Origin: Candidatus Iainarchaeum sp.
Lineage (GTDB): Archaea; Iainarchaeota; Iainarchaeia; Iainarchaeales; CSSED10-239
NCBI GenBank assembly: GCA_028700115.1
Contig: JAQVTI010000017.1
Location: 1 to 11,966 of the forward strand
Direction of reading: 5' to 3'
DNA: 11,966 nt
Positions 3,889 to 6,036 of the stretch are shown piece after piece; within the stretch, counting starts at the first letter, position 1; the number at the start of each line of letters is the position of its first letter. Position numbers and translations under genes: made by a program. Below the pieces are notes generated by a model. It was given only the letters and a program-made list of their open reading frames with translations. It was not told the origin of the DNA and made no database searches.

Positions 3889-4913
3889 TTTATCAACATT
3901 ATATTATTTTCTTTAAATATTTTATCTATTTTATTTTTTATTATTTTTAGGTCATTATTTTTTTTAATATATGTTCTTCCTAATTCTCCCATTTTTTTTA
4001 ATTTTTCTTTTTTATAATAATTCTCTTTAATCAAAGTAATAAACTTATTTAAATCTCCATTTGCACAATAACCCCCGCCACTTTTTTCTAAAAGATAGTC
4101 TGGATTTGCTGAATAAGATATAACTGGCGTTTTATTTGATAACGCTTCTAATGTTGTATTAGGATATCCTTCTGAATAAGAGGTATTTATGTAAATTGAT
4201 GCTAAATTAAAATAATCTTGCATTTTTTGTGGGGCAACTCTGCCTAGTATCTCACAATTCTTGTGTATTGCAATGTCTTTATTTGTAATGCCAACTATTT
4301 TAAATTTAATTTCGGGTAACTCTTCTATGATTTTTTCTAATATATCTAAACCTTTAACTTTATGATTTCTACCAACCCAAAGAACAAAATTTTCATTTTT
4401 ATAATTTGATTTCTGTACGTCTATTGGATTTGGGACTCTATAAATTGGGTGATTATATTTATTTAATTTTTTTTCTTGTATCTCTGTTTGGCAAATAAAT
4501 AAATCAACACAAGGAAATACTAATTTTGGAACATATCTATAATAAAAGGAAGACTCTTTTAGAAATAACCCTACATCTGAGTTGCTAGAGATAAAATAAA
4601 CTATTTTTTTATTATATAATTTTGCTAAATAGAAATAAATTGGAGAAAATCGTGAAAGTGCAAAAAAAACAACAACATCTGCATTTTTAATTGCTGAAAT
4701 TATTTTTATAAAATCTGTTTTTGTGTTTTTTATAAATACATATTTCCGTTTAGAAATATTTACGGGAATATTTTTTAAACTCACTAAAAAAGAGCAATTT
4801 TTATAATCTTTAAATATAGACTGCGCTTTTTTTTCAGCACCACCTGCTGGTTTGCCTTCTAATAATTTGCCTATTTGAGGACAAACTATTAATATCTTCT
4901 GATTACATTTCAT
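3885..4913 (-). CDS. Family 4 (GT-B, retaining-type) glycosyltransferase; paralogue of 10884..11915
   Basis: The C-terminal half carries the GT4 E-x7-E region SEGYPNTTLEALSNKTPVISY. The N-terminus is KILIVCPQ...GGAEKKA. It aligns by eye along its whole length to ORF 10884..11915. Confidence 0.85.
   Translation of the reverse strand: MKCNQKILIVCPQIGKLLEGKPAGGAEKKAQSIFKDYKNCSFLVSLKNIPVNISKRKYVFIKNTKTDFIKIISAIKNADVVVFFALSRFSPIYFYLAKLYNKKIVYFISSNSDVGLFLKESSFYYRYVPKLVFPCVDLFICQTEIQEKKLNKYNHPIYRVPNPIDVQKSNYKNENFVLWVGRNHKVKGLDILEKIIEELPEIKFKIVGITNKDIAIHKNCEILGRVAPQKMQDYFNLASIYINTSYSEGYPNTTLEALSNKTPVISYSANPDYLLEKSGGGYCANGDLNKFITLIKENYYKKEKLKKMGELGRTYIKKNNDLKIIKNKIDKIFKENNIMLIK
4050..4106. repeat. 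Paralogous nucleotide patch, copy 1 (partner 11031..11087)
   Basis: A hand alignment gives 50 of 57 identical positions, including a 19-nt perfect run (taaatctccatttgcacaa). It encodes NPD..LEKS.GG.CANGDL in both GT4 paralogues. Confidence 0.6.
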
Positions 4914-6036
4914 TATATTTACACCAATTATAATAACTTAATATACTCCAATATTTTGGATTATTAGAATCCGAAATAATTTTATTAAAGTAGTGTTCTG
5001 GGATAAACTTTTTAAAATAGTCATATTTTATATCTATTTCCGTTCGCATGTTTTTTAAATCTATAGCAAACCCTTTTTTATCTTTATAAATATTTTCGTT
5101 TAAAACACGATCTTCTACTGATTTTTTAAAAATATATTTCAATATCTTATTGTTAAATCGCAAATTTGGTGGGATTCTATATGACAATTCAATTAATTCA
5201 GAATCCAATAGTGGAGGTCTAGATTCTAAAGATACCGAAAGAGATGCCCGGTCTACTTTTGTTAATATATCATCCGGCAAATATGCTTTAAAGTCTGTTT
5301 CTTGAGCACAATTTAATAAATTATTCTCCTTTATATTAAAATTATTTGATATTACGAAATAATAATATCCGTAATCTGCAAAATAACTTGCTTTTTTAGA
5401 AAAATAATAATTATAATTATTTTCTATTAATTTTTTCCAAATAAAGTCTGTATTTTTTATAATTTGATTTAAAACAGTATATTTGCGCATCTCTCTATAT
5501 CTTTCATAACCCCCAAATAATTCATCTCCCCCATCTCCACTTAAAGAAACAGTCGCATATTTCTTTGCAATTTCAGAAACAAACATCGTTGGAATTTGAG
5601 AAGAATCTCCTAACGGCTCATCATAATATATTGGGACTTTATCTAAGAGTTTATTAAAATCTAAATCTGTTAATATTTTTGTGTGATTAATTTCGATGCC
5701 TATATCTGTATCATTTGCAACAAAGTATATTGTTTTTTTTCCAAATAATTTTGATATAATATAATATAATGGTGTTGCTTTAGATAAAGCTCTTGAACAT
5801 ACTATTTGATGTTTTATTATTATGATTGGAAGCCCTAAATAATATTCTAATTTTGATTTTTTAAATATTACTTCTATATTTTTATAAGATACACTTTTAT
5901 TTTTTGATCCAATAACATAAAAACTAGTGTTCTTTATATTTTGAAAAATATCTATAGACGCTTTTTCGCTGCCACCCGCCGATCCCCCTTCAAATATCTT
6001 GCCGGCTTGAGGTAAAATCACCAATATTTTTTTCAT
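4903..6036 (-). CDS. Chimeric ORF: a GT4-like N-terminal fragment fused in frame to the C-terminal half of an AsnB-type asparagine synthase (amidotransferase). It lacks the glutaminase domain and the PP-loop, so it may be a fusion remnant.
   Basis: Residues about 10-125 ([26 protein letters not shown] ... [19 protein letters not shown]) parallel the N-termini of both GT4 paralogues. From about residue 127 the sequence is [44 protein letters not shown] ... [27 protein letters not shown], which are Asn_synthase domain hallmarks. I could find no SGGxDS PP-loop, no N-terminal Cys glutaminase domain and no GT E-x7-E half. I prefer the start at M10 (ATG 6036), 5 nt after the upstream stop. Confidence 0.7.
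   Translation of the reverse strand: [377 protein letters not shown]

Follow-up and report, generated by a model that had tools for sequence, protein, structure and literature searches.

A chimeric reading frame in an archaeal glycan locus

We analysed an 11,966-nucleotide (nt) stretch of DNA, hereafter the window, from a Candidatus Iainarchaeum sp. genome (GCA_028700115.1, contig JAQVTI010000017.1, positions 1 to 11,966), in which minus-strand genes are tightly packed and the GC content is about 25%. The subject is an open reading frame (ORF) at 4903..6036 on the minus strand, in which the 5′ end of a glycosyltransferase (GT) gene of family GT4 and the 3′ end of an asnB-type amidotransferase gene are read as one protein of 377 amino acids (aa), from an ATG at 6036 to a stop codon at 4903-4905. 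An alternative TTG start would extend the ORF to 4903..6063 on the same strand (386 aa); the ATG was also chosen by an independent gene call on a Logan assembly. The ORF starts after a 5-nt gap downstream of the DUF362 stop codon (6042-6044), and its end overlaps the start of the next GT gene (4913) by 11 nt, both spacings having been given correctly in an initial annotation made from the sequence alone. That annotation had described a GT4 N-terminal part and an AsnB C-terminal part in one frame, and our comparisons bear this out, assigning residues 1-113 to the former and 117-377 to the latter.

A Pfam scan of the 377-aa protein returned a sole match, to Asn_synthase (PF00733; residues 115-328, E 9e-41), which corresponds to profile positions 73-293 of 354 and thus does not cover the ATP pyrophosphatase loop (PP-loop) region. 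The same scan gave no match to a GATase domain, a Glyco_transf_4 domain or the Glycos_transf_1 donor-binding domain (PF00534 or PF13692). Among NCBIfam models, the best match was TIGR03108 eps_aminotran_1 (148.5 bits vs a cutoff of 816.9), and TIGR01536 asn_synth_AEB scored 113.1 bits vs a cutoff of 267.1. A GT-like N-terminus stands in place of the N-terminal nucleophile (Ntn) glutaminase domain and its Cys2 nucleophile, and the PP-loop motif SGGxDS is lacking; in the intact parent P0001, described below, this motif precedes residue 308, the equivalent of the junction. Profile searches found no intact PP-loop or glutaminase domain, in agreement with the initial statement that both of these and the C-terminal half of the GT are missing.

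The synthetase-derived part keeps its C-terminal motifs, SGDGGDE...GGY and KVDR...E.R.P.LD (here ESRPPLLD). In an alignment with 18 AsnB homologues, G169, G170, E172, F174 and P275 are invariant, and the columns of D168, D171, K260-V-D-R263, E271 and R273 are conserved. The N-terminal part retains the GT GGSE loop, and its GT homology ends at residue 113-115 of 339-343, leaving the N-terminal Rossmann (acceptor) domain incomplete. Taking a complete GT4 N-terminal Rossmann domain as about 170 residues, about two thirds of it are present; the remaining third and the whole donor domain are gone, a domain that is present in the GT paralogues of the window and in P0355, a GT4 introduced below. Since the product has lost the glutaminase domain, the PP-loop with the first synthetase strands and, on the GT side, the entire donor domain and a third of the acceptor domain, neither parental activity would be expected to be left, and it is probably inactive. 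A search of Protein Data Bank sequences with the chimera gave only a marginal match, a hydroxyamidotransferase. An AlphaFold2 model, built from an alignment hand-trimmed so that AsnB rows could not misalign onto the GT part, had a mean predicted local distance difference test (pLDDT) score of 59.6, with residues 1-115 at 31-48, where the alignment was only two sequences deep.

The two parents and the junction

The asnB parent was recovered in intact form (related loci and proteins are referred to below by L and P numbers). A search of 5.8 billion protein clusters identified P0001, a complete 568-aa AsnB-type enzyme whose residues 308-568 are 97.7% identical to residues 117-377 of the chimera. 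P0001 has an MCG N-terminus (Cys2), GATase_6/7, an SGGVDS PP-loop at 260-265 and HHTKIL at 307-312; it passes the TIGR01536 cutoff (462 vs 267 bits) and scores 498 bits with TIGR03108. On its contig (L001), positions 2648-5018 correspond to window 5687..3317, with 96-100% nt identity just below 5687 and no DNA homology between L001 and the window above that position, so abrupt is the break. The asnB-derived 3′ part of the chimera (4903..5687, minus strand; codons 117-377) equals codons 308-568, the 3′ 46%, of the intact gene. It differs from L001 at 11 positions in 783 nt, with 5 synonymous and 6 non-synonymous changes (synonymous divergence, dS, 0.035), no stop codons and no frameshifts, and on the asnB side the event is recent. 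One of the differences, at codon 117, falls on the join itself.

The differences from L001 are unevenly placed, 7 of the 11 lying within codons 117-183 (window 5487..5687), or about 3.5% vs about 0.7% further on. This clustering could mark a further recombination boundary or reflect small numbers.

For the GT-derived half, the alignment of the first ~115 residues with the two GT4 paralogues of the operon, proposed at the outset, held up: residues 2-114 are 35% identical to the neighbouring GT at 3885..4913 (E 4e-20), and the N-terminal part matches the GT at 10884..11915 with E 9e-14. The GT parent is neither of these two genes; it is a third paralogue type, found after DUF362 in related loci and closer to the chimera than any GT of the window. 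We found this type via the neighbours of DUF362 homologues. In L007, positions 4916-5935 encode a full-length 339-aa GT4 (GT339) that is 55% identical to chimera residues 2-113, and DNA homology to the window is unbroken from the CapK-like gene through DUF362 into the GT gene, ending at window 5703. An exhaustive HMMER scan of 1.84 billion protein representatives, from which the top 150 matches were taken, added P0355, a full-length 339-aa GT4 with Glycos_transf_1 that is 54% identical to chimera residues 2-115 (E 1.4e-29). The N-terminal 116 aa gave no match in a word-indexed protein collection.

Codon-level comparison with the L007 GT339 gene and the L001 asnB gene bounds the switch by G113 (window 5698) on one side and by the second base of codon 117 (window 5687) on the other, inside the range of nt ~5683-5705 first suggested. 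The GT-derived 5′ part (5698..6036, minus strand; codons 1-113) represents about one third of a GT339-type GT4 gene, and is separated from the asnB-derived part by a junction interval (5688..5697, minus strand) comprising I114-E115-I116 and the first base of N117. These ~10 nt are assignable to neither parent, and no clear microhomology was identified at the junction.

Occurrence of the junction

An identical 377-aa product is encoded on Logan contig SRR22315503_131494 (L002), which differs from the window at 2 of 9,658 nt. A second contig, from run SRR22315505 (L013), differs at 7 of 2,630 nt and has an identical junction sequence; it is a slightly different strain. Because the same join occurs in assemblies from two different sequencing runs, the junction is, on this comparison, present in real DNA, and the parents have no common sequence upstream of the break, so that an assembler would have had no basis there for a false join. 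The carriers are all >99.7% identical, and strain single-nucleotide polymorphisms (SNPs) inside the chimera are essentially absent.

Contigs of three other assemblies are interrupted within about 700 nt of the junction, L003 with its end at window 6399, L005 with its start at 5401 and L013 with its end at 5658. L013 breaks off precisely 30 nt beyond the first base in common with intact asnB (5687 down to 5658). An assembly graph built with k = 31 would break there given a second upstream base. If that k applies, the position suggests that the L013 sample also contains another allele, differing in its 5′ part and most simply intact asnB, and the population appears polymorphic for the event.

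The two-part architecture is not a widespread conserved family among the matches listed from two large collections. No protein matching both halves was present among the matches listed from the 5.8 billion clusters, nor among the top 150 of the HMMER scan, each of which covers residues ≥101 with the exception of P0355, which alone matches at residues 2-115. GTDB species-representative genomes contained no match to the chimera or to a 38-nt asnB stretch, and the exact junction 38-mer was not found in JGI metagenome contigs. Short Asn_synthase-only proteins were considered as natural stand-alone C-terminal halves and rejected, as they begin at arbitrary profile positions at residue 1; they look like contig-end fragments. 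Several of the top AsnB and DUF362 matches are annotated as archaeon, Woesearchaeota or Pacearchaeota.

Gene order in the window and in related loci

The minus-strand genes of the window begin with two GT4 genes (10884..11915, 343 aa; 9811..10887, 358 aa) and an SDR-type sugar-nucleotide epimerase/dehydratase gene (8791..9753). These are followed by a gene for a CapK/PaaK-like adenylate-forming ligase (7508..8779), with partial NCBIfam matches to the DVU_1553 family and PaaK and a precomputed PF27533 CapK_C annotation, and by the DUF362 gene (6042..7508; Pfam PF04015), whose product is 76% identical to P0122 and 72% to P0123 at the aa level. Beyond the chimera lie a complete 342-aa GT4 gene (GT342; 3885..4913), the one whose start the chimera overlaps, and a gene for a 251-aa DUF2334 protein (3133..3888). 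Within this array, a 3.1-kb block at 5688..8789, comprising the CapK-like gene, DUF362 and chimera codons 1-116, is not found in asnB-type loci; the epimerase gene forms its left flank, and DUF2334, on the right flank, is common to both locus types. The initial annotation had placed the epimerase next to the chimera; in the window it lies 2.7 kb away, and only loci of the parental type have it next to asnB. Among its solved relatives, the entry set 6zl6/6zld, which we take to be a UDP-glucuronate 4-epimerase, ranks second and is followed by WbpP and WbgU, and a uronate specificity is plausible.

Outside these genes, three methyltransferase genes (168..866, 882..1559 and 2405..3157) flank the glycan operon, with a 254-aa ORF among them (1657..2421, plus strand) that has no NCBIfam match. 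The same gene set occurs in a contig of an NCBI metagenome-assembled genome (MAG), JAQUYT010000058.1 (L005).

Related loci are of two kinds. In L001 (GT fragment-epimerase-asnB-GT(342)-DUF2334) and in L011 and L012 (flippase-GT-GT-epimerase-asnB-GT-DUF2334, where asnB and the corresponding part of the chimera are about 66% identical), asnB directly follows the epimerase gene, and there is no CapK or DUF362 gene. L007-L010 (GT-GT-CapK-DUF362-GT(339 aa)) and L006, an archaeal MAG contig (JGI 3300014204; DUF362 76% identical to that of the window) with the order ...epimerase-CapK-DUF362-GT342-type-DUF2334, have CapK and DUF362 and no asnB within the visible stretch. Relative to L006, the body of the chimera is an insert between DUF362 and the GT gene. 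The slot after the epimerase is thus occupied in close relatives by asnB or by CapK and DUF362, and in the window by CapK and DUF362 together with GT and asnB remnants. The initial annotation had suggested looking in related genomes for a syntenic locus with an unfused GT and a full-length asnB; each was found intact, among close relatives in separate loci (L007-L010 for the GT; L001, L011 and L012 for asnB).

Alignment of these loci delimits the block. Positions 3158-6340 of L011 correspond to window 11964..8790 at 86.8% nt identity, ending just past the epimerase stop codon, and homology resumes at L011 7276, equivalent to window 5687; L012 and L001 behave alike. On either side of the CapK-DUF362 block, the best similarity is to loci without the block. 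L001, L011 and L012 all show the same 11-nt overlap between asnB and the following GT gene, and the GT start lies 2-13 nt after DUF362 in L006 and L007.

The locus contains further discontinuities. Compared with L001, GT342 is mosaic, with 96-100% identity in the first ~350 nt and 71-79% in 4460..4060 (~400 nt); dS is ~0.96 for codons 121-300, and identity is again >90% from about 3860. Such a patch, which spans the inter-domain and donor-domain region, looks like the product of recombination and might alter specificity. The DUF2334 protein has 251 aa, with a complete Pfam domain, vs 443-446 aa in L006, L011 and L012, and DNA homology to these three loci ends at about 3210-3263, where the convergent methyltransferase gene (2405..3157, plus strand) overlaps the DUF2334 3′ end. 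A second recombination boundary within a gene of this locus may lie here.

We also surveyed 79 more distant DUF362 loci (L015-L093). A CapK-like gene lies ≤1.5 kb from DUF362 in 32 of 65 metagenome loci, and the genes for the CapK/PaaK-like ligase and a ~490-aa DUF362 protein are repeatedly found side by side in glycan loci across many uncultivated lineages. The idea that asnB and CapK plus DUF362 are strictly alternative cassettes is true of five close relatives and fails across the 79 distant loci. In L006, positions 17043-20344 encode an asparaginase-domain protein and a GatB_N+GAD+GatB_Yqey protein, resembling the archaeal GatD/GatE pair. Together with the annotations of the top AsnB and DUF362 matches, this makes a DPANN-type archaeon the probable source of the window.

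A probable recombination scar and its likely route

We consider the ORF very probably to be the scar of some illegitimate event, and we lean towards the import of a cassette as its route. The recipient would have had the backbone of the close relatives, flippase-GT-GT-epimerase-asnB(568 aa)-GT342-DUF2334, in a highly mosaic glycan locus for cell-surface polysaccharide or glycosylation. A foreign 3.1-kb cassette would have been imported, carrying the genes for the CapK-like ligase and DUF362 and, from the GT gene usually found behind DUF362, the first 113 codons; it would have taken the place of the epimerase/asnB spacer and asnB codons 1-307. Homology in or next to the 3′ end of the epimerase gene may have resolved the left end, and the right end would have been joined within asnB by illegitimate recombination. 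This would amount to a single, recent event of homology-facilitated illegitimate recombination, as defined elsewhere (PMC3240628). We assign this mechanism from sequence comparison only, and it is not known to have been demonstrated in archaea. The join would be in frame by chance (1 in 3), uniting the GT 5′ end and the asnB 3′ end in one 377-codon ORF that keeps both the parental start context after DUF362 and the parental 11-nt overlap with GT342. The net effect would be the exchange of an AsnB-type amidotransferase for a CapK-like ligase and DUF362, with GT342 kept.

A comparable outcome is known from type VI secretion system (T6SS) loci of Vibrio cholerae, where replacement of effector modules leaves arrays of orphan genes (PMC5361080). 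In both cases a foreign block replaces resident genes, with one boundary in or next to homology and the other intragenic, yielding a truncated remnant; here, unlike in V. cholerae, donor and recipient remnants are in frame as one long ORF.

That the event was an import and not a deletion is what we infer from the flanks of the block, both of which most resemble loci without it. The other intragenic breakpoints, in the GT342 mosaic and the shortened DUF2334, would also count for recombination. Several observations weigh against our preferred account or limit it. AsnB-like, CapK-like and DUF362 genes often share one locus in distant taxa: of 43 DUF362 loci with ≥5 kb of flank, 12 contain an AsnB-like gene, and 10 of these 12 a CapK-like gene as well (for example L023, L047, L074 and L080), so that an ancestor with all of these genes, followed by a simple deletion, stays plausible. 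Protein searches returned no relative of the GT-derived half that is >55% identical, so that the dating of the event comes from the asnB side. The ratio of non-synonymous to synonymous divergence (omega) of the asnB-derived part is 0.27, nominally <1, a value drawn from only 11 changes that are common to the intact-gene lineage and too few to tell constraint from neutrality. Finally, inactivity of the product is deduced from its missing domains, and the AlphaFold model, being of low confidence, is uninformative on this point.

A plain internal deletion is the foremost alternative, possible and less probable in our judgement. It supposes an ancestor with the order epimerase-CapK-DUF362-GT339(full)-asnB(full)-GT342-DUF2334, from which about 1.6 kb was lost between GT339 codon ~114 and asnB codon ~307 in one in-frame fusion, likewise leaving an inactive scar. 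Such a deletion would be a single event with no need of donor DNA, of which a close source locus was not recovered, and the co-occurrence of DUF362, CapK-like and AsnB-like genes in several distant lineages is compatible with the required ancestor. The sharp break relative to L001 is equally expected, as the deleted part is not available for comparison. Set against this, none of the five close relatives carries both modules in its visible stretch, and the flanks of the block are most like loci that lack it, so that its exact absence from the three asnB-type relatives would need a separate explanation. A very recent deletion fusing a GT paralogue to asnB had been the first of two origins proposed in the initial annotation; the recent fusion stands, with a 98% identical parent, a sharp break and an architecture unique among the matches listed, and a plain deletion is less likely than cassette replacement.

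The second proposed origin, a repurposed fusion protein under selection, we regard as improbable, having found no positive support for it. The protein might serve as a scaffold or substrate-binding subunit, adopt a hybrid Rossmann-like fold, or be read in frame for the sake of coupling to GT342; in the hybrid-fold variant, as improbable as the rest, the GT strand-loop-helix would stand in for the lost PP-loop module in nucleotide binding. In all sequences that span the frame wholly or partly (the window, L002, L005 and L013) it is uninterrupted, the AsnB C-terminal motifs and the GT GGSE loop are still present, and the low omega of the asnB part points the same way, with the small number of changes already noted. 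Translation across an out-of-frame join would end after 6 or 11 codons, which could uncouple GT342, and we speculate that in-frame joins may be those that persist. However, the carriers are so nearly identical that persistence is untried by time, and recency, with 11 of 783 nt changed from an intact gene, fully accounts for the intact frame. The match lists from the two very large protein collections held no second, diverged example, and the synthetase fold has lost its central strands and PP-loop, and the GT its whole donor domain. AlphaFold gave no confident hybrid domain, which at the shallow alignment depth of that region is no evidence either way.

Nor do the open frame and tight coupling, initially read as a sign of selection, argue for a repurposed protein. 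A run of 377 open codons would be extremely unlikely to arise in random DNA with this base composition. Each half, however, belonged to an intact gene until recently, which leaves only the join to be explained, and a join has a 1-in-3 chance of being in frame. The coupling at both ends is tight because it was inherited unchanged from the parent genes.

An assembly artefact wrongly joining two co-occurring strains (DUF362-GT339 and asnB-GT342) is the least credible explanation: the material is metagenomic and the breaks of L003, L005 and L013 near the chimera indicate strain heterogeneity, but the window, L002 and L013 have the same junction, L013 with its own strain SNPs, a random mis-join would also have to be in frame, and no k-mer is common to the parents upstream of the break, so spanning k-mers must come from reads.

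Relation to known enzymes and implications

AsnB-like enzymes of the WbpS type (eps_aminotran_1/WbpS/WbqG) convert uronic acids to uronamides (PMC7468200). The C-terminal 261 residues of the chimera derive from such a gene, whose intact form follows a sugar-nucleotide epimerase in a glycan locus; lacking the glutaminase domain, Cys2 and the PP-loop, the chimera is a fragment of this family and not a member. Similarly, residues 1-113 are homologous to the N-termini of GT4 (GT-B fold) enzymes of the same and related loci, whereas the full-length paralogues have the Glycos_transf_1 donor domain that the chimera lacks. For annotation this is a caution, as a long, well-coupled ORF with a significant Asn_synthase match can be a non-functional remnant. 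As a discovery in protein function the case is minor, a clear instance of an established phenomenon in a little-known lineage; were the selection reading true, it would be a new protein made from two enzyme halves, caught in the act in an archaeal glycan locus.

With a CapK-like ligase and DUF362 in place of the lost amidotransferase, the strain would be expected to have a changed sugar-carboxylate modification. The CapK-like/DUF362 pair occupies the same slot after the epimerase as asnB does in close relatives, which hints that the pair acts on the same sugar carboxylate as AsnB. Glycan loci diversify through the swapping of gene cassettes, and in this uncultivated, very AT-rich lineage both breakpoints of what would be one such swap are preserved at nucleotide resolution.

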